Translations under genes and position numbers: made by a program
Assembly (NCBI GenBank): GCA_050251015.1
Contig: JBFWNO010000001.1
Location: 80,645-144,644, forward strand
Direction of reading: 5' to 3'
From: Planctomycetota bacterium
GTDB lineage: Bacteria > Planctomycetota > JBFWNO01
DNA length: 64,000 nt
Notes under the pieces: generated by a model
What the model saw: the letters and a program-made list of their open reading frames with translations, nothing else
Databases searched by the model: none
Told to the model about the DNA's origin: nothing
Shown here: positions 2,408-18,209 of the stretch, one piece after another
Layout of the letters: the number at the start of each line of letters is the position of its first letter
Numbering within the stretch: the stretch's first letter is position 1

Positions 2408-3124
2408 CTATTGTAATGAAGGCCAGTGCTCGCGGAGCTGGCTGGCCCTCAGGATGGCCCGACCCGCCGCACTGGTGAGCGACACTTCGTCGCTTCTCAG
2501 GGAGACCCCCGTGATCCTGCCCCTAAACGCCGCGGAACCTTCGGAGAGGTCTGTCTCGCGGCCATGCCACAGCTCGATCCACCGGGCTTCAAGGCGCCCT
2601 TCATCCCAGATAGAGATCGTGGCAAGTCGGCTCACAATGGACTCGGCCCAACCCATGAGATCGGCTTCGGTCGATGCCAAGGACAGGTGTCCAGACCCGG
2701 CGGGCCACGGTGCGTTTCCGATGTTCAACCCCAATCCCAGCACCACCCCCCCGTCCACAACCTCGCCAAGGATGCCGCCCAGCTTGAGGCCATCACGCTC
2801 GATGTCATTGGGCCACTTCAACGAAGCAGCCAATCCCCGATTCCGGATCTCCTCGACCACGGCCACACCCATGGCCAGAGACCAGCCCAGCACCCGCTTG
2901 CACATCGGTACCTTCACGCTCATATACAGGCCGCCGACAGGAGAGATCCATGTGTGATCGGAGCGTCCCCTTCCCCCCGTCTGGCTCAGGGCCATGATCC
3001 ATTCACCCGTGAAGGAGGGTCTTTCCTTGAGCCAGTCACTGGTGCTGGAAAGCTGGGCGAACACCCTGCCAGGAAGAGGGTCCCAGGGGGGACTCAGGGG
3101 TTCCTTGGTGTACACTTGGCCCAT
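2408..3124 (-). CDS. birA: biotin--[acetyl-CoA-carboxylase] ligase, group I (no HTH domain)
   Basis: GRGRSDHTWISPVGGLYMS and KWPNDI motifs. GAGGG lies 7 nt upstream of ATG 3124. Alternative starts are at 3151 (ATG) and 3175 (TTG). Confidence 0.85.
   Translation of the reverse strand: MGQVYTKEPLSPPWDPLPGRVFAQLSSTSDWLKERPSFTGEWIMALSQTGGRGRSDHTWISPVGGLYMSVKVPMCKRVLGWSLAMGVAVVEEIRNRGLAASLKWPNDIERDGLKLGGILGEVVDGGVVLGLGLNIGNAPWPAGSGHLSLASTEADLMGWAESIVSRLATISIWDEGRLEARWIELWHGRETDLSEGSAAFRGRITGVSLRSDEVSLTSAAGRAILRASQLREHWPSLQ
3111..3116 (+). promoter_or_regulatory. candidate -10 box (TACACT) for a leaderless transcript of the 3123 gene
   Basis: The hexamer lies exactly 6 nt upstream of ATG 3123 and there is no Shine-Dalgarno sequence. 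The same geometry recurs at 12303, 17108, 17175, 30608, 30631, 55250, 63679 and 63719. Confidence 0.4.
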
Positions 3125-3587
3125 GAAAACGCCCTCACTGTTCGGAGCCATTGCCCTGAGGCTCAACCTGGTCAACGAGCTTCAGCTCAACCAGGCCCTC
3201 GAGGACCAGACTCGCCGGCGATCAGCCGGAAAGCCCGGGCTCCTGGGGGAGATTTTACGTGAACGGCACGCCCTCACCGAGGAAGGACTCAGGAAGGTGC
3301 TCGAGGTGCAGAAATCGGTTGAGCTGGCGCTCGAGGATACTCTTTTCGGCGAACTAGCCATCAGCCACGGCTTCATCACGGCCGCCCAGCTCGACAAGAG
3401 CCTGGCGCGCCAACGGGAAGACGGCTTCAGGCAGAGGATTGGCTCCCTTCTGGTGGCAGCGGGCTCCCTGGAACCCGGTCGACGCGATGCCATCCTCGCG
3501 GCCCAGTCGCGCCTCCGGGACAAGCTCGCCGCCTCCACCGGCATCCTCCCCAAGCCGGTGTTGCCGACCAAGCGCCTCCGCCGTTAG
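3123..3587 (+). CDS. stand-alone protein made of four T2SSE_N/MshEN-type 24-residue repeats (putative c-di-GMP binding)
   Basis: 154 aa. Repeats are LFGAIALRLNLVNELQLNQALEDQ, LLGEILRERHALTEEGLRKVLEVQ, LFGELAISHGFITAAQLDKSLARQ and RIGSLLVAAGSLEPGRRDAILAAQ. No ATPase domain is present. Confidence 0.65.
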   Translation: MKTPSLFGAIALRLNLVNELQLNQALEDQTRRRSAGKPGLLGEILRERHALTEEGLRKVLEVQKSVELALEDTLFGELAISHGFITAAQLDKSLARQREDGFRQRIGSLLVAAGSLEPGRRDAILAAQSRLRDKLAASTGILPKPVLPTKRLRR

Positions 3588-6500
3588 CGGGCCGGCGGAG
3601 CAGCCTCCAGCACGATGGCGCCCTTGGCCCCGGCCTCGACGAGGATGGCGAAGCGTTCGATCTCGCCCTGGGACTCGGTGCTCACCGAGGCGTAATCGAA
3701 GCGGCCGCGGATGTCGGTGTTGCCGTCTTTGTGGAAGACCACGCGGCCATCCTTCAGGCGGGCGTAGACCTTCACATAGGCGGCCGGCACCAGCTTGCCG
3801 TCGGCCAGCGTCTGCACCCGCAGGTGCCCGGCCCTGTCCATCACCTGCACATTGAGATCGTGGCGGCTGAACATGGCACTGGAGGAAAGGCCTCCCGACA
3901 CCGCTTCCACCATCAACGGACGGTTGCGCAAGGCTTCCGGGACTTCCACTTCGCGCCGTCCGTCCGTGAGCTCAGTCTCCACCACATGGCGTGCGGCCAC
4001 ATGGGAGAAGCAACCCGAGGCTGCCCGCACAAAGGGATTGATGGAGAACATCTGCTCCAGATCCACCTCATGGAAGCTCAAGCGGCACTTCTCAAGGGAC
4101 TTCGAGGTGAGAACAAGCTTGCCTTCCTCGCTGGTCAGCGCCAGAAGGGGCTGACTGTTCCCCAGGGCCTCGTTACCACTTCCCTCCACGATCTGACCAC
4201 TCGCTTCGTCCAGGTGGCGGAGAGCCTCGACAAAACGCGTCCTCCAAAGCTCCACCGGATAGTCCTTGTAGCCCTCCGCAATCTCGCGGGCCTTCCCAAA
4301 TTCGCCACCATAGATCGATGCGCACACAGACATGTAGTCGTGCTGCAGCCCCATGCCATCACTGCGGGGGATCTTGGCAAAAAACGCTAGGGCCTCCTCG
4401 ATCCTGTCCTGGAGGAAGAGGAAATAGACCAACGTCATGGAGTCCGCTGCCGTGGGGACCTGGCGATGGGCCAGGGCCTCCAGGAAACTGCGGTACTGGG
4501 TCATGATGGCGGCATTGGTGATCTTGCGGACAGCCCCGAACCGGTAGGTCCTGGCGTTCACCAGGGGATCAAACTCGGTGTGCACCCTGAATCTCCGCTC
4601 CAGGGGGTCCACACTCAAAAGTTCGCATTCAAACAGGGGGCCCACTGCCGAGGCCATCGTGGAGTTTTCCAGGTAGGTCTTCATCCTCTTCCTGTCATCA
4701 TGCTTGAAGGCGTAAGCCCACAACGGCGCTGTGTAGACCATGCGCTTCTCCAGGGCCTCGATGATGTCCTCGTAATCGCCCTGATCCCCAAGCCGGAAGG
4801 CGATCCGATCAAGGTTGATCTCCATCAGGTTGTGATCGTTGATGAAATCCACCACGTCACCTGTCGACCCTTCCTGGGAAACATAGTCCCAGCTGTTCTT
4901 GTCGGCCTCAGCGGCTTCGGAGCGGACCTTCAGCTCCATGCCGTTGGTAGAAGCCGAATACTCCGAGCGGCAGGAGACCTGAGCTCCGCCCTGCGCGAAC
5001 GATCCTGCTTCGGGAAAGTAGAAGTGCAGATCCACGGCAACCGTGGCGTGGGCTTCCAGTACCAGGGTCCGGCGTAGGGTGGGGCGGCAACCACTGACAG
5101 GCAGTGATCCACGAGGGATTTGGGCTAAGACACCAAGGGTCAGCCTTCGGCTTGAGGGGTTGGTGATCACCACCTCGCAACCGTAGACCTTGCCCGCCTG
5201 GAGGTCGCCCTGGACAAAGTTGTCGACTTGCTCACCGTTTTCGCGGCGATAACGCTCCATGGCCGGATAGATGTTCTGGCCCACAAGCACCTGCGGGCCC
5301 TTGGAATCGCCATCCGCCGGACGATTTTCCTCAACGAGGGCCACCAGGGGTGAACCGGCCTTCAATGTGTAGCGCCGACCTTCACCAGCCTCCTCATGCT
5401 TCTCGGCCTTCTCAGGGAGTCCAAGCACGGAAAGAGCCAGCATCATCTCCGTGAAGTTGCCGGCTGCCTTGTCGAGGTGCGACGACAGGAAAGGAATTCC
5501 TGCAGGGCTCGCGGCATAGTCCAGCCAGAAGTCGTCGACACCGACCAAATCGGCTCCTTGTTGGTCGGGACGGAGATGATGGTAGTTGTTTTCAATCCAG
5601 GCCTTCGTAGGTTTGAGAGCCAGATAGACAGCCGCCCTAGCCCTGGAACTCTCGTATGCCTCATTGTCGTCCTTGGTGTCCATCGATGAAACATTGTCGA
5701 AATCAGCCATGGACGCGCTGTCTCCGTTTTCCGCCTCATTGGCCGGGTTGGGAGCCGGTGCCGCTTCCTCAAGGCTTCTCATGGCTTTCATTTCCTCACG
5801 GCCCATCCACTGGTTGGCATGGCTCTTGGCTTTCTTGAAGGCCGACACCTGTCCCGGGGCACCGGGATCCCCGGCAAGTTCCGAGGCGAAACCCTTTTCG
5901 AAAAAGGCGTCAAGGGTTTCGGTTTCCGGAGGCATCAGATCCAGGGTGTCACGGAGGAGTTTTGTGATCTCGTTCCGGCCAAGTTTCCTGGCCAGAAGGA
6001 TCTTTTCGACCGCATTGAGGCGCGAGAACTCGAAAGGCTCGAGATACCTCGCCAGGTCTTCGCCCAAAAGCCAGCGGTCCATGAAGGTCCTGTCCTTCTT
6101 GCACGTCAGGAAAGGCTTGACGACTCCGTTGAAGAATTCCGGATCTTTTTCATGGATGAAGAAATTGAGTTCATGGCAGGCATGCTTGGAGTAGAGGTCC
6201 TTCTTGGATGTGGCATCTAGGCCATTCCATTGGGTGATGAAGCGGAATTCACCGAGCATCGCGTTCCCTGAAAGGGACATGAAAAGGCTGTGCACGCTTT
6301 CCAGGGAGTCATACATCCTGAAGTCCGATGACGTCACATCGGCGATTTCCAGATTGTCCCCTCCTTTGAGGGTGCGGAGTTCCCTCACCCCCACGACCTT
6401 GGCGCCCGGCTCAAGGGCCACAGCCAGTCGCCTATCGCGAAGAGCGATGGATGTGGCCGGCAACCTTGCCGACCTGTATTGAGTGCCTTCCCTTGAGCAG

Positions 6501-9500
6501 GCCGCCACCTGCACATGGGTCCTTTGGCCGAAATCCTTCAGCGGGATCCTGATTTCTCCCGACTCGTTGGGACGGAGGTTGGCGAGAACTAAAGCGGGTT
6601 GGGCGAGAAAATTGTAATTGGGTGCCGAAACCAAACCCATGTCGTCGCCTCTTCCACCACCACCCGATCTTCTTTCCAAACTTTGTCTTCCACCACGGCG
6701 ATTGCCGCCGTAGGCCCCGGCACCGGCTCCTTCCTGGGCAAAGGTCTGGGTGTCGACAAGTTCCATGGGGACAAGCAAGAGGCTGGGTCGGGGGATCATC
6801 AAGCCGGGATAACGGGTCACGGACTGCCGATCAAGAATGTAGCGAACCTCATCGCCAAGGGGAACATTGGGGCTGAACTCGTTTCCGACAAGATCCTCGA
6901 CAACCCCCGAAGGGGCAGTGAACCCCGACCGCAGGTTGGAGAAGACAGTGGAAGGCGTTGCAAATGTCGAAGCAATGATGTGCACTCGACTGTCATCCGA
7001 GGCATGAGTCAACCTGACAACCAAGTCATCCCCATCCGGTGACACCGAGGCCAGTCCCAAGGGATGGGCCTGTGAAAGACCCAGGGTGCGTCGCTGGCCT
7101 ACAACGGCCTGGCCCACTTGGGCCCCCTTCTCAACGCGCACAATGAGCTGACCTCTCCTTGAGACAAGGTGATAGTCGCCCGCCGCGAGATTCTTGAGGG
7201 TCAGGATCCCATCCTGCAATGACAGATTTTCCGTCAGATTCTCGTGGTGCAGATTGGAGCGCAAAGAGAAGAGGGCTAGGGATTCGTCGGCAATCGTGCC
7301 GGCAGCCCAAGGCAGTTCCACATCGCCCTCGACACCGTGGATCGACGGTGGCAGTTCCGTGGCCCCTGACTCCCAGAGTGTGAAGGAATGGTCCCCCGAA
7401 AACCTGTCGGACCCCACAACCAGACTGCGAACCCCGGGAAGACCGCCCAGGTTCACGGCCCCAGTGGCATCTGTTTGCAGATGGACATCCTGGGTGTATG
7501 CCAGACCCTTCACCTGAACCTGCAAACGCAGGGTGCGGTGGGCAATGGGCTCGCCATTTTTGCCTGTCACCAGGATCTTGGCCCCCTCGCGGGTCAAGCG
7601 AAGGTGGGGAGCTTCCACACTGAGCGTGGCATCAATGTCATTGAAGGTGCTCATGTGGGAGCTTGAGACGTTCACGGGAACATCATCAAGAAGACGTTCC
7701 ACCTTTCCCGACAGGGTGACCTCCATGGTGCGGAGACCCAAAGGAACCTTGATCCTGTGCACAAGCTCCCCTGCGGTGCTGAGCACCAAGTCTCGGGCAA
7801 CACTGGTCACTGTTGTGCCGTCGATCAGGCCCATATTGATCGTGAGCTCAGGGCTTTTCAAGGCTGCCAGGGAGTGGCGCCTCTGGCCCGCCCAAAGGTT
7901 GGGGCGCACCAGAATCTCACCCTCGCGGCCTTCCAGGAAGCTTTCGCGCTCGACTTCAACACCCAGGTCCAAACGGAAATTCTCTTGCCGGCGCTCCAGG
8001 GTTGTGAGGGCGGCAAAGCCCCCCTCAAAAAGGATCAGAGGCTCCTGCTTGCCCACGGGGGCGAAAGGAATCAGGATATCCCCTTTGTCGTCGGGCAGGT
8101 ATTCCTTGCCCCCCACATGGGCCCGCGCCGACTTCAGCAGGACACCCTCCTCATCGACCACGCGCAGGATCTGTCCCGCCGTTGAATCGCCTTCCACACA
8201 GCGAAGCCTTCCTTTTTGCACCAGGACCCGGCTCTTGATGCCCGAACCGATGAATTCGACGATCCACACGCCGCGATTTTTCATTTCCGGGAACTCGAAG
8301 GTCCTCAGTTCCTGAATGTAAGGTCCTTCGGTGCCCTTCTCTGTGCGGGCTGAAGGACTGACGAGCCCGTCAAGGTTGATGGAGGTGTCGATCTCCTGGC
8401 CCGTGTCCTTGTAGTAACCCAGGGTATTGATTTCGTAGACCCTCACCAGAAGGCGGTCGACATTCTTGAGCAACACCTTTAAGGAGGGTGTTTCGGAGGG
8501 CGCGAACCTCAGAGGGTTTTCGCGCGAAAAATGGATCGACACGGAATTCTTCAGCGCCTCCATGGCGCCTGGCGTAAGCCAATCCGACCATGACGAGGGT
8601 TCGTCACCGGCCAGGATCCGTCCCTCGGCCACGCAGGCCCTCACGAAATCCTCGGTCAGATAGCGGGCATAGGAGCCGACCTTGTCACGTGAATCGGCCA
8701 GGCGGTGGAGCATTTCACGGATCAAGGTTGCCTCACCGAGACCGGGTTGAGGTACGCAAGACTCCCCTGAATACCTGTTGGAACGGACCCCTTCGGCCTG
8801 TCTCTTGGCGAATTCACTCAAGTGAGGCCTGTAACGAGGCAGGTTGAGATATTCGACAAATAGTTCCTGGTCGGCTTTTCCCTCGGCCAAATCCAGGAGC
8901 AGGATATTCATGAGGATGCGGGCCTTGAGCTCGGAAAAGGCCGGGCCTAGTTGTGCGGAAAACTCGCGTAAGCGGCTCAAGTGCTGGCGTTGGGTGGATG
9001 GTTCAAGGGGGTCCTCAGATTCCGTCGGCGACAACCGGCGAACGACCGCCTCGACATAGCCTTCATAGCCCATCAACGCGGGATGCCGCTGGGCCAGATC
9101 CCGCAATTGGGTCAGGGTCAATTCATTGTGAACGGGTCTGGCTCCAAAGGTGACGCCTCCCTGAGGATCACTGAGGTCGACCACAATGAGGTCGAGAAGC
9201 CCATCGACATCGGGGCGCTTGAGCCGCTGGAGAAGGTTGATCCTCTGCTCTCTGGTGAGGTTCCTCTTCACCAACGCCGGCAACATCTCATCGGAGAAGG
9301 ACGCCAGACTCAGGCGATCGCTGCTGAGCTGCCTTTCCGTGATGCGCTCCACGTCGAGGATGTCATGGGGCAGGGTGTTGGGATATTGGTTGGGGCGTGT
9401 GGACTGTTCCTTTTGGTGGTTGAATCTCAAGCCAAGCCGCTCCGTCAGAAAGCGGAGCGCGGTTTCCTTGTTGTCGCCATAAGTCCCCAGCACCTGACGG

Positions 9501-9778
9501 TTCTTCATCACCTGCCATGAACCCGTCTCCCCCAGGGTTCTCTTCCAAGATTCCAGGGTTTCGGCGGACTTGTCCCATGAACCGGCCTGCTGCTGGTAGA
9601 GGACGTGGTAATAGAAATAGGGTTCCGTTCCTGGAACGAGCTTCCGGAGGGTCTGCTCGCGTTGGGCGCTCATGGCGTATTCCTCGACGAATCCGATCTC
9701 CTCGGAATTGCCGGCGAGCAACGCCGGGAGGGAGATCAGGGATGTCATCAGGATCCGGCGGAAGCTGTATCGGCTCAT
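3584..9778 (-). CDS. giant secreted protein of unknown family (2,064 aa)
   Basis: Uninterrupted 6,195-nt ORF with AAGGAG 7 nt upstream of the ATG. Signal peptide MSRYSFRRILMTSLISLPALLAG/NSEE. No recognisable catalytic or adhesin-repeat motif. Confidence 0.85.
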   Translation of the reverse strand: MSRYSFRRILMTSLISLPALLAGNSEEIGFVEEYAMSAQREQTLRKLVPGTEPYFYYHVLYQQQAGSWDKSAETLESWKRTLGETGSWQVMKNRQVLGTYGDNKETALRFLTERLGLRFNHQKEQSTRPNQYPNTLPHDILDVERITERQLSSDRLSLASFSDEMLPALVKRNLTREQRINLLQRLKRPDVDGLLDLIVVDLSDPQGGVTFGARPVHNELTLTQLRDLAQRHPALMGYEGYVEAVVRRLSPTESEDPLEPSTQRQHLSRLREFSAQLGPAFSELKARILMNILLLDLAEGKADQELFVEYLNLPRYRPHLSEFAKRQAEGVRSNRYSGESCVPQPGLGEATLIREMLHRLADSRDKVGSYARYLTEDFVRACVAEGRILAGDEPSSWSDWLTPGAMEALKNSVSIHFSRENPLRFAPSETPSLKVLLKNVDRLLVRVYEINTLGYYKDTGQEIDTSINLDGLVSPSARTEKGTEGPYIQELRTFEFPEMKNRGVWIVEFIGSGIKSRVLVQKGRLRCVEGDSTAGQILRVVDEEGVLLKSARAHVGGKEYLPDDKGDILIPFAPVGKQEPLILFEGGFAALTTLERRQENFRLDLGVEVERESFLEGREGEILVRPNLWAGQRRHSLAALKSPELTINMGLIDGTTVTSVARDLVLSTAGELVHRIKVPLGLRTMEVTLSGKVERLLDDVPVNVSSSHMSTFNDIDATLSVEAPHLRLTREGAKILVTGKNGEPIAHRTLRLQVQVKGLAYTQDVHLQTDATGAVNLGGLPGVRSLVVGSDRFSGDHSFTLWESGATELPPSIHGVEGDVELPWAAGTIADESLALFSLRSNLHHENLTENLSLQDGILTLKNLAAGDYHLVSRRGQLIVRVEKGAQVGQAVVGQRRTLGLSQAHPLGLASVSPDGDDLVVRLTHASDDSRVHIIASTFATPSTVFSNLRSGFTAPSGVVEDLVGNEFSPNVPLGDEVRYILDRQSVTRYPGLMIPRPSLLLVPMELVDTQTFAQEGAGAGAYGGNRRGGRQSLERRSGGGGRGDDMGLVSAPNYNFLAQPALVLANLRPNESGEIRIPLKDFGQRTHVQVAACSREGTQYRSARLPATSIALRDRRLAVALEPGAKVVGVRELRTLKGGDNLEIADVTSSDFRMYDSLESVHSLFMSLSGNAMLGEFRFITQWNGLDATSKKDLYSKHACHELNFFIHEKDPEFFNGVVKPFLTCKKDRTFMDRWLLGEDLARYLEPFEFSRLNAVEKILLARKLGRNEITKLLRDTLDLMPPETETLDAFFEKGFASELAGDPGAPGQVSAFKKAKSHANQWMGREEMKAMRSLEEAAPAPNPANEAENGDSASMADFDNVSSMDTKDDNEAYESSRARAAVYLALKPTKAWIENNYHHLRPDQQGADLVGVDDFWLDYAASPAGIPFLSSHLDKAAGNFTEMMLALSVLGLPEKAEKHEEAGEGRRYTLKAGSPLVALVEENRPADGDSKGPQVLVGQNIYPAMERYRRENGEQVDNFVQGDLQAGKVYGCEVVITNPSSRRLTLGVLAQIPRGSLPVSGCRPTLRRTLVLEAHATVAVDLHFYFPEAGSFAQGGAQVSCRSEYSASTNGMELKVRSEAAEADKNSWDYVSQEGSTGDVVDFINDHNLMEINLDRIAFRLGDQGDYEDIIEALEKRMVYTAPLWAYAFKHDDRKRMKTYLENSTMASAVGPLFECELLSVDPLERRFRVHTEFDPLVNARTYRFGAVRKITNAAIMTQYRSFLEALAHRQVPTAADSMTLVYFLFLQDRIEEALAFFAKIPRSDGMGLQHDYMSVCASIYGGEFGKAREIAEGYKDYPVELWRTRFVEALRHLDEASGQIVEGSGNEALGNSQPLLALTSEEGKLVLTSKSLEKCRLSFHEVDLEQMFSINPFVRAASGCFSHVAARHVVETELTDGRREVEVPEALRNRPLMVEAVSGGLSSSAMFSRHDLNVQVMDRAGHLRVQTLADGKLVPAAYVKVYARLKDGRVVFHKDGNTDIRGRFDYASVSTESQGEIERFAILVEAGAKGAIVLEAAPPAR

Positions 9779-9802
9779 GAGTTCACTCCTTAACGATTCA
9801 AT

Positions 9803-9828
9803 GGGGGGGCGCAGGGAATATCCCCCCC
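9803..9828 (-). promoter_or_regulatory. G7-N12-C7 hairpin in the leader/promoter region of the giant gene
   Basis: GGGGGGG (9803-9809) and CCCCCCC (9822-9828) form a perfect 7-bp G:C stem, 25-50 nt upstream of ATG 9778. Confidence 0.4.
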
Positions 9829-9949
9829 TTCCTTACTTCTAGACGTCCAAGATGGCGGCAAGTTTCAGAATGTCTCGAATTTTACAACGGGGCGATTTTG
9901 GTGGTGCGAAAAATCGTGTTTTCGTTTATATTGCCGCGTCCTGAAGGTG

Positions 9950-10025
9950 CCCTCTTAGCTCAGTTGGTCAGAGCAGCTGACTCTTAATCAGCGGGTCCAA
10001 GGTTCGAGTCCTTGAGGGGGCACCA
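9950..10025 (+). tRNA. tRNA-Lys (anticodon CTT), CCA encoded
   Basis: Hand fold: D arm GCTC/AGTTGGTCA/GAGC; anticodon arm GCTGA-CTCTTAA-TCAGC; T arm CAAGG-TTCGAGT-CCTTG; discriminator A followed by CCA. The 3' acceptor strand appears 1 nt short (see findings). Confidence 0.85.
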
Positions 10026-10048
10026 ATTATCTTCCCGGGAAGACTCCT

Positions 10049-10939
10049 TCACCTGAGTGGGTGTGTTCGGCCCAGGATTCTGTCCTGCAGGCGTTGGTTC
10101 AGCGGGTTCCAACCATCGTAATGACCCCAGTCCACCAACTGCTCCTCCCTGAGCGGCTCGTCGGACAGATCCAACAGCTCCACTCCCCCCTCATTCAGCC
10201 TGTGGCGGACCAGGAGCAGGTTGTCCTCCACACAGGAACCTCTTGTTTCCCTGAATTCCGCAGTGACAGGAAGGATCACCACCTTCAGGGAGCCACCGCA
10301 TTGCAACTGGCCTCGGTTCCACTCGACCAGCTTGTGTAAATCGGATTCAAGGGAAGTCTCCACGCCCCTGGTGCGCATCTTCTCAATCAAGTGCTGGATC
10401 TCTCTCGACCGCTTCAGCCCGCGATCGGGAATCGACTTGCGGCCAAGGAGTGTCAGGCGCATGGATTCCTCCTCTGAACCCAAGGGCCCCGGGAGGACGC
10501 TGTGCATCGCAAGTCTCCACAATTCCCTGCGCGCTTCCAGCCATACGGCATCACCGCATGGTGTGGGCACCACAGGACCCAACAGCATCTGCGGATCGAT
10601 GAGGAAAATCCAACGGAGGCCGCCCGGGGGCATCCAGGGGTCCAGTACCAGGGGCCGCCCATAGGGGTAGTAGAGGGCCAGTCCGGTCGGGCCCAATACA
10701 GAAGGAGGAAACAAGCTGTTGCCAATGGAACTGCCGAAGATCCAGGGATCCCCTGGAGCCGCTTGATGCCGAGGGGCCTCCACACGCATGAAGGCCAGCC
10801 GATTGACGCCGTAACTCCAGTGGCGTCCCGTCGAGAGAGATCCAATGTCTTCACGCTGGAGCCACCACTCGACAGGGGCAGCCACATACACCACCACACC
10901 CAGGAGCAACGACAACAACATGGCTTGGAGCGATTTCAT
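10049..10939 (-). CDS. membrane-anchored SGNH/DltD-AlgX-like partner of the MBOAT acyltransferase
   Basis: 296 aa. Its ATG overlaps the MBOAT stop (TGATG). N-terminal TM segment MKSLQAMLLSLLLGVVVYVAA. SGNH-like block I FGSSIGNS and block V DWGH. The longer 533-aa ORF-track model is a frame shadow. Confidence 0.6.
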   Translation of the reverse strand: MKSLQAMLLSLLLGVVVYVAAPVEWWLQREDIGSLSTGRHWSYGVNRLAFMRVEAPRHQAAPGDPWIFGSSIGNSLFPPSVLGPTGLALYYPYGRPLVLDPWMPPGGLRWIFLIDPQMLLGPVVPTPCGDAVWLEARRELWRLAMHSVLPGPLGSEEESMRLTLLGRKSIPDRGLKRSREIQHLIEKMRTRGVETSLESDLHKLVEWNRGQLQCGGSLKVVILPVTAEFRETRGSCVEDNLLLVRHRLNEGGVELLDLSDEPLREEQLVDWGHYDGWNPLNQRLQDRILGRTHPLR

Positions 10940-12303
10940 CAGAAACGGAAATAGATGTGGGGGGATTCGCTGAAGAATGCCAGGATGTAAACAAGGCCGA
11001 GGGTGCAAAGCGGGTAGCGCCATCGCGGGGATGCCACCAGGCGATCCCAAATTCCCTCGCCAAAAAGTGCCGCGGCCCCGTGGCCGATAAGGGCAGCGCC
11101 CAGGAGCACCAGAACCATGACAAATTCTGGAGTGGCCACGCCTGCGCCCTGCACAGGCATCATGGCTGCCTTGATGATCTCCTGGGCTCCCGAGACACTG
11201 CCCGCCCTGAAGGGGACAAACAGCAGGGCGGCGATTTGGAAAGTCGCCAGCCGACCCAGCACCGGCATGGACAACAGCGAGGAAAAGGGGCCCCATCTTT
11301 CCGTGGCCAAAAGAATCCCGTGAAGAAGTCCCCAAAGGACAAAGGCGTTGGCGGCGCCATGCCACAACCCCCCCAGCATCATGGTGACGACCAGGGTAAG
11401 GGCCACCTTCAGTCGCGAACCCCGCGAACCCCCAAGTGGGATGTAGATGTAATCGCGGATCCACAGGGAGAGCGTGATGTGCCAACGACGCCAGAAGTCG
11501 CGGAAGCCGCGCGCCAGGTACGGCCATTGAAAATTCACGGGAAGGTTGATGCCCATCATCCGTCCCAATCCGAGGGCCATGGTGGAATAGCCGCTGAAGT
11601 CGAGAAAGATCTGCAGGGCATAGGCCCACACCACCACCCAGGCCTGCCATCCCTGATACACACCGGAATGCGCATGGGCGTCATTGACCACCAGGCCCAG
11701 CGAGTTGGCTGCGGTTTTCTTCACCGCACCCCAGAGAAAGAGGGCAATGCCGGATTCAAGGGCAAGACTTCCAAAGATGATCCTCTTCCGCAGTTGGGGC
11801 AAGAGCACCGAGCCTCGAACAATAGGGCCGGCCACCAACTGGGGAAAAAAACTGATGTAAAGAAGGAACTCGCGGAAACCCCGGCAGGGAGGCAACGCAC
11901 CTTTCCAGACGTCCACGCTGTAACTGACGATCTGAAATGTGTAAAAGCTCACCCCCACCGGAAGGATCCATGAAGGGGAATCCAGCCAGGCGTCCCATCC
12001 TGTGAGCCTGTGAAGCAGGCCCCCAAAATACGCGGCATACTTCACGGTCACCAGCACCGCAAGGCTGCCACTCACGCTCAGGGCCAGGGCGCAGCGGCTT
12101 CGGTGTGGCCCGAAGGACCCGGCCCACAGGAATGCCCAAAGGCCGCTGACCACCAAAAGGAGAACCGAGAGAGGCTCGTGCCAACCATAGGCCACCAGGC
12201 TCAACCCCAGAAGGATGTCCCTCTGCCAGGGGCCCAGTGACAGGAAGACCAGCGGCAACCCCAGAGCCAGAAGAAGGACGAACTCGGGGGAAAGAAAACC
12301 CAT
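10939..12303 (-). CDS. MBOAT family O-acyltransferase (AlgI/DltB-like)
   Basis: 454 aa, polytopic. Hallmark FWRRWHITLSLWIRDYIYIPLGGSR plus LWHGA. Confidence 0.9.
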   Translation of the reverse strand: MGFLSPEFVLLLALGLPLVFLSLGPWQRDILLGLSLVAYGWHEPLSVLLLVVSGLWAFLWAGSFGPHRSRCALALSVSGSLAVLVTVKYAAYFGGLLHRLTGWDAWLDSPSWILPVGVSFYTFQIVSYSVDVWKGALPPCRGFREFLLYISFFPQLVAGPIVRGSVLLPQLRKRIIFGSLALESGIALFLWGAVKKTAANSLGLVVNDAHAHSGVYQGWQAWVVVWAYALQIFLDFSGYSTMALGLGRMMGINLPVNFQWPYLARGFRDFWRRWHITLSLWIRDYIYIPLGGSRGSRLKVALTLVVTMMLGGLWHGAANAFVLWGLLHGILLATERWGPFSSLLSMPVLGRLATFQIAALLFVPFRAGSVSGAQEIIKAAMMPVQGAGVATPEFVMVLVLLGAALIGHGAAALFGEGIWDRLVASPRWRYPLCTLGLVYILAFFSESPHIYFRF

Positions 12304-12309
12304 GGCTCC

Positions 12310-12315
12310 AGTCTA
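12310..12315 (-). promoter_or_regulatory. candidate internal -10 box (TAGACT), 6 nt upstream of the MBOAT ATG
   Basis: The minus strand reads TAGACT-GGAGCC-ATG within the 26-nt gap after the kinase gene. Confidence 0.3.
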
Positions 12316-12329
12316 TGACGTTGGAGGCC

Positions 12330-13652
12330 TCACCCCAAGGCCCGCCTGACCCACCTCCTCCAACTTGCAAAACTCAGGTCTAGAGCTGTGTCGACCTCGG
12401 GGGGCATCAAGATTCCCAGCAAGGGGGGCAGGGAAACACCGCAGGTGACAAGAAGACCCCGCAAGGTCAGTTCCGGGTCATCCGCGACCAGGAAGCTCCG
12501 TGATATGCAGCGCCTCAAGGCCTCCCTGATATGGGCGTCGCGCGAAAGGCCTCCCGAGAGGAGAATTGACCCGTTGCCTGGGAGAGATTCCAGGATCTCC
12601 CTGACCCGGAACGCCAGGCCCTGGGCCAAAATCATCCTGAAGTCCTCACCCGTGAGCCGGGAACCACGGGGGGAAAACAGGGGGCCCACACCCGGACGCC
12701 ACCAAGGGGCACCAACGGCCCCGAAGTCGGGGAGACCAAATTCTGGCTCACTCTCGTCACCCCTTGATGATCCATCCGGGGCCTGGGTGAGACTGAAGGA
12801 GGTGGCGATTCCGTTGATTGTGCCCTCGGCCATCCAGGGAACCCGCTCCCCGCGTTTGCCCAAATGCGAGAGAAGGAGTCCCGAGCCCATCCGGGGCCTT
12901 GATGCCGTTCGTGACAGCACAAACCCCCCGGTACCCAGATTCACCAGGCAGGGTGCGGCGCGATGATCGAGTCCCAGGGCCGCAGCACTTTGGTCGGCGA
13001 GCATGGCCAGGATTTCGCCACGCTGATGCCTCCAAGGGCCTGGCCCCACACTGGGAAGAAGGGAGCGAGGCACATCAAAGAAATGAAGAAGATCCTCATC
13101 CCAATCCTCATCATCAAGATTCCACAAGGATGTCCTCTGGGCCTGGGTGGGATCCATCACATGGAGCTCACCTCCTGAAATCAGGATGGCGAAATAGGTG
13201 TCCAGGGTCCCAAACCGCAGTTCTCCATTCCCTGCACGGCGTCGGAGATCCGGCCTTTCCCCCCACAGACTGGCCAATTTGGGCCCCACATAATGCGGTG
13301 ACAACACGAGGCCTGTTCTCCGCCTCACCCAGGACTCGGCCTCCCGACGGCTGGAGCACCAGGCGGCAGCCCTGGTGTCCTGCCAGCTAACCAACGGTGT
13401 CACCGGCGCAAGTGTGGAGGCCTCCCACAGCAAAAAGCTTGAGCGCTGCGTGGCCATGGCGAGGCTCCCCTCCCACGGGCCCAATAGGCGACGGGCCCGC
13501 TTCCAGAGATCCAGGGGCTCATGGGTGACCCGTAACCCCCGACGAAAAGGGGGCGGTAGAGAATCCTGGCTCAGAGTCGGGGGAAATCCGTGTCGATGAC
13601 GAAGCGCCCGAAAGGATGTACTCCCGAGATCGAGTGCCAGCAAGCCCGTCAT
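12330..13652 (-). CDS. FGGY-family carbohydrate kinase (glycerol kinase-like)
   Basis: ALDLGSTSFRAL, GTLDTYF, NLGTGGFV and GGLSRD motifs. ATG 13652 forms an ATGA overlap with the glpD stop. Confidence 0.75.
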   Translation of the reverse strand: MTGLLALDLGSTSFRALRHRHGFPPTLSQDSLPPPFRRGLRVTHEPLDLWKRARRLLGPWEGSLAMATQRSSFLLWEASTLAPVTPLVSWQDTRAAAWCSSRREAESWVRRRTGLVLSPHYVGPKLASLWGERPDLRRRAGNGELRFGTLDTYFAILISGGELHVMDPTQAQRTSLWNLDDEDWDEDLLHFFDVPRSLLPSVGPGPWRHQRGEILAMLADQSAAALGLDHRAAPCLVNLGTGGFVLSRTASRPRMGSGLLLSHLGKRGERVPWMAEGTINGIATSFSLTQAPDGSSRGDESEPEFGLPDFGAVGAPWWRPGVGPLFSPRGSRLTGEDFRMILAQGLAFRVREILESLPGNGSILLSGGLSRDAHIREALRRCISRSFLVADDPELTLRGLLVTCGVSLPPLLGILMPPEVDTALDLSFASWRRWVRRALG

Positions 13653-15220
13653 GGGCAAAGCAGGGTCGCCACTTCACTCTCGCGGCGCGGGGTGTCCCAT
13701 CCCAGCTCCCGGCCCATCAAGGCGCTGGCTCGCTCAAGAATGTCGCGGGACAGGGGTCTCAACAGACTCAGGGGCAGGCGACGACGGAGGGCGTCCTCCA
13801 GACTGAGCGCCCGTTCATGGCGGGCGGCCATCAGCAGATCACCGAGGACATAGGGCTCGGCAGGGTGGATCCTCGCGGCCAGGCCGGAATCGTCCTTGAT
13901 GATCTGTAGGAAATGTCGGACCTTGGTGCCGTAACGAGACACGGCGATCCCCGCGGAGGCTGCGTCCAAGCCCGCCTCGGCCAATTCGGCCACCCTTTCC
14001 GCCCGCCACGGCTTCCAGGGCGCCGAAGGCGCCCAGGGAAAAGGCTGGCTGTGCGTCGAGCAGGGCCGGCAGGTGAGCCCCCCTGCCTTGACCATGGCAT
14101 CCACAGCCAGGCGAGCTTCTTCCCTCGCTGCCGTGAGCTTGCCACCTACCGTGGTGAACAGTCCCGGCTCGGGACCCAGAAGTTCCCACTCCCTGCTGAG
14201 AGAACTTTCGGATTTCTTGTCGGCCTCGCGCAGAACCCTGACCCCCGCAAAACTTCCCCTGACTTGCGAGCGTTCAAAAGGTCGGCGCAACTTTGAGCCG
14301 GCTTCCTTCAGGAGGTAGTCCACATCCTCTTCCAGCACCTCCACACTAGAGGGGTCGCCACGCCACAACGTGTCCGTGGTGCCCACAAGGGTGGAACCAT
14401 GCCAGGGGATCAGGAAGAAAATGCGGCCGTCCTGGCCCGCCATCAGGAGGGTGGCGTGATCCGTCTCAAGGGACGGCAACACCAGATGGACTCCCTTGGT
14501 TAGTCTCACTCCATCGGCGCGGCAACCTGCGCTTCCAGGTCGGGCCCAGGGTCCGGTGGCCGAGAGGGTGATCGCGGCTCGGATATCAAAGGCGTCTCCG
14601 CTCAGCCCATCCACGCATCGGGCGCCGATCACCCGCGAACCCTCGCGCAGGAAACCCGACGCCTTCACCCTGCTGGCCACAACCGCTCCGGCTTCTGCGG
14701 CGCCCAGGGCCAGTTCAAGGGTCAGCCTGGCATCATCGGTCTGGGCATCCAGGTAACTGAACCCCCCCACCAATTGATCCGGGTTGAGGTAAGGGTAGCT
14801 TGAGAGCAGTTGTTCCCTGGAATAACGCCGATAGCCCTGCCCTTTGGGGAAGCCGGCAAGGGCGTCATAAAGTGTCAGTCCCGCCATGAGCGTAAGGGAC
14901 GACACTCTGGACGTATCGTACAAGGGCAGGGCGAAACGCAGTGGTTTCACCCGGTGAGGGGCCAGCCTCATCAAGAGGGCGCGTTCCTGAAGGGAGCGGC
15001 GGACCACCCCCAGGTGGAAGTGTTCCAGATACCGGAGACCTCCATGGATGAGTTTGGAGCTGGCACTGGAGGTTCCTGAGGCGAAGTCGCTCTGTTCCAC
15101 GAGGGCCGTCCTCAGGCCACGCTTCGCGGCATCCAGCGCTGTCCAGGCTCCGGAAATGCCACCCCCGATAATCAGCAGGTCGAAAGACCCCTCAAGCTCC
15201 TTAAGCTCGGATCGCATCAA
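13649..15220 (-). CDS. glpD: FAD-dependent glycerol-3-phosphate dehydrogenase
   Basis: DLLIIGGGISGAWTALDAAKRG...ASGTSSASSKLIHGGLRYLE; 523 aa. Confidence 0.9.
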   Translation of the reverse strand: MMRSELKELEGSFDLLIIGGGISGAWTALDAAKRGLRTALVEQSDFASGTSSASSKLIHGGLRYLEHFHLGVVRRSLQERALLMRLAPHRVKPLRFALPLYDTSRVSSLTLMAGLTLYDALAGFPKGQGYRRYSREQLLSSYPYLNPDQLVGGFSYLDAQTDDARLTLELALGAAEAGAVVASRVKASGFLREGSRVIGARCVDGLSGDAFDIRAAITLSATGPWARPGSAGCRADGVRLTKGVHLVLPSLETDHATLLMAGQDGRIFFLIPWHGSTLVGTTDTLWRGDPSSVEVLEEDVDYLLKEAGSKLRRPFERSQVRGSFAGVRVLREADKKSESSLSREWELLGPEPGLFTTVGGKLTAAREEARLAVDAMVKAGGLTCRPCSTHSQPFPWAPSAPWKPWRAERVAELAEAGLDAASAGIAVSRYGTKVRHFLQIIKDDSGLAARIHPAEPYVLGDLLMAARHERALSLEDALRRRLPLSLLRPLSRDILERASALMGRELGWDTPRRESEVATLLCP

Positions 15221-17124: not shown

Positions 17125-17162
17125 AAGTGCGCCCTTCAACCCTCCATCGCAAAAACACGGAC

Positions 17163-17168
17163 TATAAT
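17163..17168 (+). promoter_or_regulatory. -10 box TATAAT, 6 nt upstream of ATG 17175 (leaderless-type)
   Basis: TATAAT-GAAAGA-ATG. Confidence 0.5.
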
Positions 17169-17174
17169 GAAAGA

Positions 17175-18209
17175 ATGAAGAGACCCATTTGGGCCTTGGC
17201 CATTCTCACGGGCATCATTTCGTTGACCCTCCATGCGGAAGAGGACCCATGGGGCAATCCCGTGCCCCAGCAGGAAAATCCGGAACCGCAGAAACAAAAT
17301 CCGCAGAACGAGATCCAAGCCCTGCAACAGGCCCTCTTGAATCCGGACGGACTGGCACAACTTCTGGGCAAGCCCCTTCTTGAGGCCAAAAGCGAACACT
17401 TCCGCATCATCAGCATGCTATCGGACTCTGACAACAGGGCCATCCTTGAGCACACTGAGAAGGCCGTAGCCGAGCTTGGAAAGATCCTGCAGGATCCTGA
17501 CATCTTCGCCACCGTTCCCGACAAACTTGTCTTTCTCATTCTCGACAGCCGGGAAGCCTATGAAACCTATGTGAAGACCATGGTGAAGGCCCAGGTCTCC
17601 GATGAAGTCAATGCCGGCCTCCTGCTGCGAGCTGCAGGGTTTGCCATTCCCACCCAATCCGAGATTTTCAAGATCAACCAGCTCCACCCCCAGGCCCCGC
17701 GGGTGCACAACTGCGGGTTTGTGGCCCATGGAGCCGTGACCCACTTCCTGGAAGCCTGGAAGAATCCTGGCAAGGGATCCAAGCCCCTGCCCGCCTGGTT
17801 CAGGGTTGGGGCCGTGTTGCTTGTGGATATGAAAATCTCCGGCAACGGCGGCTACTATGAGATCGCCTACGGCAAGGCGGATTCCAAGGATGAATACCGT
17901 GATGTGTCCAAGAGGGAGGACTGGCTCAGGCTCTACAAGGATGCCAAGGAACCCCTGTCCCTTGAAAAGGTGATCAACACTTCCTTTGCCGCCTTCACCC
18001 ACGAGTGTCGGGCCATTTCCTGGATGGCCTGCGAGACCCTACTCGAAAGCAAAAAAAAGGGCATCATGGCCGAGCTGACCGAAAAGTTCCGCACGGCGGG
18101 TGACTACGAAACCTGCCTCACCGAGGTCACGGGCTGGAACTACAAGAAGTTTTCCAGCCGGATGGCTGACTGGGTGAATTCCCAGAAGATCGCCAAAGAA
18201 AAGAAATAA
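17175..18209 (+). CDS. secreted hypothetical protein
   Basis: Signal peptide MKRPIWALAILTGIISLTLHA/EE followed by a Gln/Pro-rich linker. The ORF-track start at 17127 would read through the TATAAT box. Confidence 0.7.
   Translation: MKRPIWALAILTGIISLTLHAEEDPWGNPVPQQENPEPQKQNPQNEIQALQQALLNPDGLAQLLGKPLLEAKSEHFRIISMLSDSDNRAILEHTEKAVAELGKILQDPDIFATVPDKLVFLILDSREAYETYVKTMVKAQVSDEVNAGLLLRAAGFAIPTQSEIFKINQLHPQAPRVHNCGFVAHGAVTHFLEAWKNPGKGSKPLPAWFRVGAVLLVDMKISGNGGYYEIAYGKADSKDEYRDVSKREDWLRLYKDAKEPLSLEKVINTSFAAFTHECRAISWMACETLLESKKKGIMAELTEKFRTAGDYETCLTEVTGWNYKKFSSRMADWVNSQKIAKEKK

Follow-up and report, generated by a model that had tools for sequence, protein, structure and literature searches.

The 64,000-nucleotide (nt) stretch of contig JBFWNO010000001.1 from a Planctomycetota bacterium (positions 80,645 to 144,644 of the forward strand; hereafter the window) carries a gene for a giant protein of 2,064 amino acids (aa), which is very probably a member of the CAGE family, as judged from a database look-up and its predicted architecture. 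The protein has exactly the same sequence as NCBI MGE4157536.1 ('MAG: hypothetical protein AB7F75_00385 [Planctomycetota bacterium]'; P0001 in our protein set), an accession listed among the 3,521 CAGE homologues in Table S2 of the CAGE preprint (bioRxiv 10.1101/2025.09.22.677704). In those authors' BLASTP comparison, MGE4157536.1 (length 2064) matched Dictyostelium XP_635154.1, a CAGE of solved structure, over nearly its full length, with a maximum score of 560, a total score of 691, an E-value of 7e-160, a query cover of 0.92 and 25.94% identity (bioRxiv 10.1101/2025.09.22.677704). Together with the domain match described below, the identity and the table row point to an already catalogued bacterial CAGE-family member, and the window therefore adds nothing new to the CAGE catalogue. 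A first-pass annotation, made from the sequence alone, had singled out the protein as a candidate for an undescribed function; no function is indeed known, while the family itself had already been described with this accession in its table.

Tetrahymena CAGE1 (I7MLD7, 258 kDa) and Dictyostelium AbpF (DDB_G0291229, XP_635154.1; structure solved by cryo-electron microscopy) each assemble as a homotetramer into a hollow shell of ~1 MDa that encloses ~600 nm3 (bioRxiv 10.1101/2025.09.22.677704). CAGE1 has no Pfam or SCOP domain; its 15 domains run alpha, alpha, six beta-sandwiches (the last discontinuous), discontinuous alpha, beta, alpha, alpha, beta (bioRxiv 10.1101/2025.09.22.677704). More than two thirds of the CAGE homologues are bacterial, chiefly from Planctomycetota and Verrucomicrobiota, and most of the bacterial ones carry signal peptides of 21-22 aa according to DeepTMHMM; the function of CAGE was reported as unknown, with no obvious enzymatic motif noted (bioRxiv 10.1101/2025.09.22.677704).

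The window protein resembles CAGE1 and AbpF in being a giant protein of about the same size (2,064 aa, within the family range of ~2,000-2,300 aa), in the succession of its helical and beta-sandwich domains as modelled in two AlphaFold2 halves, and in its lack of Pfam or SCOP domains; its phylum and its signal peptide are typical of the bacterial members listed. Pfam, NCBIfam and PDB sequence searches gave no match at E<=1, and a 13-sequence family profile likewise found no family in the curated libraries; Pfam matches in the 35 family members scanned were sporadic and below threshold. The PDB searches were empty because the solved structures, 11KS and 11KT, were not yet in the libraries. The protein differs from the eukaryotic CAGEs in its low identity (~26% to the Dictyostelium one), in being 150-300 residues shorter, and in its predicted export, whereas those proteins are cytosolic or ciliary. 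Of the reported eukaryotic partners, actin, Asf1 and IFT proteins, none is known in the bacterial periplasm. Asf1 apparently has no homologues in gram-negative bacteria (bioRxiv 10.1101/2025.09.22.677704).

An intact gene for a predicted exported protein

The open reading frame (ORF) occupies 3584..9778 on the minus strand and runs unbroken from an ATG start through 2,064 codons to a stop. A Shine-Dalgarno sequence, AAGGAG (9786..9791, minus strand), was read directly from the sequence 7 nt 5' of the ATG; the first-pass annotation had correctly recorded both the 6.2-kb ORF and this strong ribosome-binding site, leaving the strand unstated. At the local base composition a stop-free run of 2,064 codons has a chance probability of ~1e-31, and the G+C content at third codon positions (GC3, 0.71) far exceeds that at second positions (GC2, 0.43), the pattern expected of coding DNA. 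The source is a metagenome-assembled genome, and giant ORFs are at times chimeric; a frameshift or assembly artefact had been named beforehand as something that read data might reveal. The probability that the ORF is an artefact, a fusion or a pseudogene is nevertheless negligible, given that over 200 independent homologues, equal to it in length, align collinearly from end to end, that internal stops are lacking and that the coding GC3 skew is normal. The giant protein is encoded by a real, intact, conserved gene of ~2,100 codons.

The N-terminus, MSRYSFRRILMTSLISLPALLAG/NSEE, resembles a Sec signal peptide when judged by eye, as had been proposed. The predicted signal covers aa 1-23 (9710..9778, minus strand), with cleavage placed between G23 and E26, immediately ahead of the conserved motif EIGF, and the same arrangement of a hydrophobic leader followed by EIGF was seen by eye in 13 of 13 aligned homologues, in agreement with the N-terminal secretion signal of ~21-22 aa in bacterial CAGEs. 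A scan of the sequence past the leader found no hydrophobic or transmembrane segment and no C-terminal anchoring or secretion-system signal, which agrees with the earlier statement that no autotransporter- or type I secretion (T1SS)-like C-terminus is present, and a motif scan of the whole sequence was likewise negative, as stated then, for CxEQ, HExxH and RTX repeats. The computed mass of the mature protein is 226 kDa, giving 905 kDa for four copies.

Several short motifs were considered and set aside. The sole GGRGDD/RGD of the protein sits inside the Gly/Arg low-complexity insert and was rejected as a functional motif, being absent even from a 75%-identical homologue. Export by the Tat pathway, hinted at by 'FRRIL', was dropped because the homologues lack twin arginines. 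A conserved ACHELNFF was rejected as a degenerate thioester, with Leu in place of Gln and a Cys that is not invariant.

Predicted domain architecture

Two AlphaFold2 (AF2) models were computed, each on 14-sequence alignments: an N half (aa 1-1030), with a predicted local distance difference test score (pLDDT) of 81 and a predicted template modelling score (pTM) of 0.72, and a C half (aa 1031-2064), with a pLDDT of 69 and a pTM of 0.45. The order and boundaries of the predicted domains map one to one onto the 15-domain list of CAGE1, with a split beta-sandwich and a discontinuous helical domain at the same places. The layout sketched in the first-pass annotation (N-terminal helices of ~430 aa, a Gly/Arg insert, an acidic stretch, TPR-like helices and a terminal beta-sandwich) matches the models. 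Its 'non-repetitive' beta-rich middle does not, since AF2 predicts there a tandem array of about six macroglobulin/Ig-like sandwiches.

All features that follow lie on the minus strand. The predicted all-helical N-terminal region (aa 30-115 and 143-411; 8546..9691; pLDDT mostly 85-92) corresponds to CAGE1 domains 1 and 2. The macroglobulin/Ig-like beta-sandwich array (aa 414-985; 6824..8539), drawn from AF2, Foldseek and hhalign, corresponds to domains 3 to 8a, with approximate AF2 bounds for the individual sandwiches of aa 414-522, 525-596, 601-711, 722-800, 812-900 and 908-985. The split sandwich is interrupted by a linker that is predicted to be disordered (aa 986-1056; 6611..6823; pLDDT <50, with support from the alignments) and continues in post-linker beta segments (aa 1057-1156; 6311..6610), which in the C-half model correspond to CAGE1 domain 8b, where the split sandwich is completed, and to part of domains 9/10. 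The middle helical domain (aa 1159-1302 and 1416-1451; 5426..6304; from AF2 and alignments) would be the discontinuous CAGE1 domain 11, broken here by a disordered, acidic and hypervariable insert at about aa 1303-1415. It is followed in the model by one or more beta domains (aa 1462-1619; 4922..5395), equivalent to CAGE1 domains 12 and 10b, and by a TPR-like C-terminal helical region (aa 1630-1859; 4202..4891), equivalent to domains 13 and 14, for which weak TPR/ANAPC3 matches were obtained in two of 13 homologues by Pfam scan. Two C-terminal beta-sandwiches (aa 1878-2059; 3602..4147), delimited by AF2 and by conservation, correspond to CAGE1 domain 15.

Size and conservation of the family

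A word-indexed homologue search returned 14 clusters, all of ~2,100 aa and 31-35% identical to the query (one at 75%), none with a Pfam domain, so that the protein looked nearly orphan, as it had been called. An exhaustive HMMER search with a profile of aa 25-1156 against 1.84 billion representative proteins corrected that picture, finding 4,615 relatives (cluster representatives) at E<=1e-3, 3,249 at E<=1e-10 and 1,783 at E<=1e-30. Among the best 150 of the 4,615, nearly all are of ~2,100 aa and match end to end. The CAGE family comprises thousands of genes in bacteria and protists, with Planctomycetota as the principal source among bacteria. Planctomycetal giants annotated as 'hypothetical' and lacking Pfam matches can now be named CAGE-family.

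In an alignment of 211 full-length members, 131 positions are at least 95% conserved. The best conserved blocks are aa 1201-1240 of the middle helical domain and a C-terminal block, YVKVYAR...KDGYTDLRGRFDY, for which the family pattern is YVKVYAR...KDG(Y/N)TDxRGRFDY. Within the middle helical domain (aa 1196-1262; nt 5993-6193), a polar cluster of H1202, E1203, D1212, K1227, D1234, N1255 and E1258 is at least 99% conserved across the 211 members; the CAGE preprint does not appear to describe it (bioRxiv 10.1101/2025.09.22.677704). The two blocks might mediate contacts between subunits, or form a site for binding or catalysis.

One relative, P0014 (1,289 aa), represents only part of a full-length CAGE gene, which spans 6790-14529 of locus L003 on the 399-kb contig ctg9170 (ENA ERZ26167977). 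That gene is split into four or more pieces in differing frames; its contig, of 26% GC, looks eukaryote-like and has many short ORFs, with a VWA-Vint protein nearby. The fragmentation possibly reflects frameshifts introduced by long-read sequencing of a low-GC organism, or else introns. A homologue search seeded with P0014 and aimed at a eukaryotic CAGE returned named relatives that were all bacterial.

Relation to alpha-2-macroglobulin and complement

In A2M (alpha-2-macroglobulin) proteins, the bait region is inserted in the macroglobulin domain MG6, and the TED, an alpha/alpha toroid in which the thioester motif CxEQ resides, is flanked by CUB between MG7 and MG8; MagD-type members lack the motif. 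Foldseek matched both halves of the window protein to this superfamily. For the N half, the best 50 matches were all of the complement/A2M family (CVF, C3c/C3b, C5, C4, CD109, A2ML1 and TEP1), with E-values of 7e-11 to 6e-8, a probability of 1.0 and ~640 aligned columns covering whole MG1-MG6 chains, at template modelling (TM) scores of just 0.1-0.2. The C half matched C5/C3b alpha chains, E. coli ECAM, and Salmonella and human A2M with E-values of 2e-6 to 1e-4; the ECAM NIE-MG1 fragment matched it at a TM score of 0.57, and the alignment of the whole C half to C5 alpha chains had a TM score of 0.09. The first-pass annotation had found no recognisable family: the empty Pfam and NCBIfam searches uphold this, and the structural matches to both halves make a denial of macroglobulin-like character too strong. 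A2M was also the top match reported for CAGE1 domains 4 and 6, and the Balamuthia mandrillaris CAGEs KAL6042135.1 and KAL6061513.1 carry the GenBank label 'MG2 domain-containing protein' in Table S2 (bioRxiv 10.1101/2025.09.22.677704), so at least one annotation pipeline has recognised a macroglobulin domain in a CAGE protein.

At the sequence level, the CAGE family profile weakly matched two planctomycetal A2M-like giants at E ~5e-4: P0015, a 2,738-aa protein labelled 'alpha-2-macroglobulin' by JGI, and P0016, a 2,443-aa 'MG2 domain-containing protein' from Paludisphaera borealis. Both have genuine MG2, A2M_BRD and A2M Pfam domains and TPR regions, with a weak bMG10 in P0016. When a 211-sequence CAGE profile was used in hhalign, aa 407-774 aligned with residues 246-617 of P0016 (the bMG3/MG2/MG3 region) at 94% probability and an E-value of 1.4e-7, and aa 1813-2027 aligned with residues 2070-2347 (the end of the TPR region and two terminal sandwiches) at 93% probability. 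The same deep profile gave no match to E. coli ECAM alone or to the TED regions of ECAM, P0015 or P0016, and nothing significant for thioester or CUB. None of the A2M Pfam models (PF01835, PF07703, PF00207, PF07678 and PF07677/bMG10) matched at E<=0.01 in 35 family members, the closest A2M-type match being one member with bMG3 at E 0.088; P0015 and P0016, as positive controls, did match the A2M models.

The window protein and P0015/P0016 have in common an N-terminal helical (TPR) region, MG domains, a terminal helical region with two sandwiches, a terminal TDxRG(R/V/I)F motif and a Gly/Arg-rich segment at the bait position, in addition to the hhalign matches at both ends. They differ in what lies between, where P0015 and P0016 have a TED-like region and bona fide MG2, A2M_BRD, A2M and bMG10 domains; the CAGE protein lacks these Pfam domains, and no TED-like region was detected in it. 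The profile and model comparisons make it probable that the beta-sandwich array and the C-terminal module of the window protein share ancestry with their counterparts in the planctomycetal A2M-like proteins.

Cross-matches in hhalign also indicated a possible internal duplication between aa 430-550 and aa 1871-2065 (nt 8129-8489 and 3584-4166). In P0015/P0016, the first sandwich pair finds a match in the counterpart of the C-terminal pair, and vice versa; a strand of the type 'KNV..L.VKVyEIN' / 'NL..V.V.YY.MD' occurs in both pairs.

The Gly/Arg low-complexity insert (aa 1017-1046; nt 6641-6730, minus strand) is modelled as disordered. It lies in a segment (aa 1004-1057) between conserved PW and NLDF anchors that is 52-57 aa long in the 211 members and hypervariable in sequence. 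A motif, GGGxGGK[FW]GGRxGGR, occurs in the linker of 13-17 of the 211 members, depending on which of two pattern counts is used, and the window protein holds a degenerate form. A near-identical string, GIGGGAGGKFGGRSGGRNR, sits at residue 1397 of P0015, in the bait region that separates its A2M_BRD and A2M Pfam domains. Residues 1013-1045 of P0064 and 1388-1420 of P0015 are 58% identical over 33 aa, a figure of uncertain significance in low-complexity sequence, and the BLAST E-values for the motif (5e-7, uncorrected) overstate its significance for the same reason. We regard the Gly/Arg motif common to CAGE linkers and the P0015 bait region as a lead, not a finding.

Alternative explanations and proposed role

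The matches to complement and A2M could mean that the giant protein is an extremely divergent, thioester-less bacterial A2M, a periplasmic protease inhibitor of the MagD/YfaS type whose Gly/Arg linker would be the bait region, and that CAGE is a subfamily of A2M. Compared with human A2M, C3/C5, ECAM/YfhM and Pseudomonas MagD, it does show a run of macroglobulin-type sandwiches, detected by Foldseek in both halves and by hhalign over four consecutive domains, and a flexible, hypervariable segment that interrupts one sandwich at the place which the bait region occupies in MG6. Its predicted periplasmic location is that of bacterial A2Ms, and human A2M is also a homotetrameric cage. The Gly/Arg motif of some CAGE linkers and the two Balamuthia labels point the same way. 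This reading is nonetheless improbable. The hhalign matches are confined to the first four sandwiches and the C-terminal module, global TM scores are only 0.09-0.19, and the E-values for the Gly/Arg motif are inflated by low complexity. Past the linker, helical and beta modules follow one another in an order unlike MG7-CUB-TED-CUB-MG8, and the protein adds a 380-aa N-terminal helical region and two more helical domains; the cage architecture of CAGE is distinct, and the gene has no pbpC or mag-type operon neighbour. We do not file the protein as A2M because it has no A2M Pfam model, no CxEQ thioester, no detectable TED/CUB and no match to ECAM in profile comparison. A lineage-specific secreted adhesin or surface protein of an undescribed type, with a functional RGD, would account for the signal peptide, the Ig-like sandwich array and an RGD in a flexible loop. 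Such an identity is highly improbable: the RGD is lost even in the 75%-identical homologue, there is no C-terminal anchoring or secretion-system signal and no transmembrane segment, and family members occur by the thousand in Planctomycetota, Verrucomicrobiota, Thermodesulfobacteriota and eukaryotes, the eukaryotic ones being intracellular cages.

Several points weigh against membership of the CAGE family and what it would imply. The link to the solved CAGEs rests on the authors' BLASTP table and the architecture match. The two halves were modelled apart and the C half is of moderate quality, so that the packing between domains is provisional. The protein is divergent, with a median identity of 34% to the others in the 211-member alignment, and some consensus residues are swapped, as in KDGNTD for KDGYTD. 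A bacterial tetramer would be an extrapolation from the eukaryotic CAGEs, and the bacterial cargo cannot equal the eukaryotic cargo, because eukaryotic CAGEs are cytosolic or ciliary and bacterial ones exported. The first-pass annotation had named a full-length match to a functionally characterised family as a result that would speak against it, and CAGE goes half of that way, being characterised in structure and not in function.

On the CAGE reading, the protein would be exported by Sec and, after removal of its leader, four 226 kDa subunits would form a hollow shell of ~0.9 MDa in the periplasm or paryphoplasm, modelled on the eukaryotic homotetramers and their cavity of ~600 nm3. By this analogy, we consider it somewhat more plausible than its opposite that bacterial CAGEs form cages. 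More speculatively, the shell might serve as a container, taking in or sequestering macromolecular cargo by way of its slits, and the macroglobulin-like array with its bait-like disordered linker might support a capture resembling that of A2M without covalent thioester chemistry. The invariant H-E...D...K...D...N..E cluster could be an assembly interface, or an unrecognised binding or catalytic site.

A further conjecture, which we think unlikely though worth stating, is that CAGE is an ancient offshoot of the A2M/complement lineage and that the exported bacterial CAGEs are thioester-free periplasmic traps. On this view, the disordered linker of 52-57 residues in the split sixth sandwich might serve as a bait or gate, whose cleavage or engagement would close the shell round a protease or cargo. 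If true, this would be the first mechanistic hypothesis for CAGE and would connect two classes of tetrameric protein cages. The leads for the family are the tie of the sandwich array and C-terminal module to planctomycetal A2M-like proteins, the bait-like linker and the invariant polar cluster.

Genomic neighbourhood and other genes in the window

No gene is common to the neighbourhoods of four homologue loci, or to these and the window locus, where the neighbours are housekeeping genes (a BirA-like ligase, tRNA-Lys, MBOAT and glycerol-3-phosphate genes). An operon was considered and dropped, the homologue neighbourhoods having no common genes; the giant gene looks monocistronic. A promoter and terminator scan of 3300-10100 found nothing exceeding shuffled expectation.

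The convergent ORF at 2994-3587 (plus strand; likely start at 3123) overlaps the stop codon of the giant gene by 4 nt and, at its 5' end, runs into the BirA-like gene at 2408-3175 (minus strand). It has repeated 'L..ALE.Q' helical motifs, no Pfam match and no counterpart at the homologue loci, and the conserved neighbourhood suggested earlier between it (3123-3587) and the giant gene was not borne out. At 17127-18209 (plus strand) lies a gene for an uncharacterised 360-aa protein with an N-terminal hydrophobic leader, predicted to be exported and without a Pfam match. A 533-aa ORF at 10049-11650 (minus strand), also without a Pfam match, shares ~700 nt with the 3' part of the MBOAT (AlgI/DltB-like) gene at 10939-12303. 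Translation probably starts well downstream of the first codon of this 533-aa ORF, and its product may be a partner protein of the O-acyltransferase.

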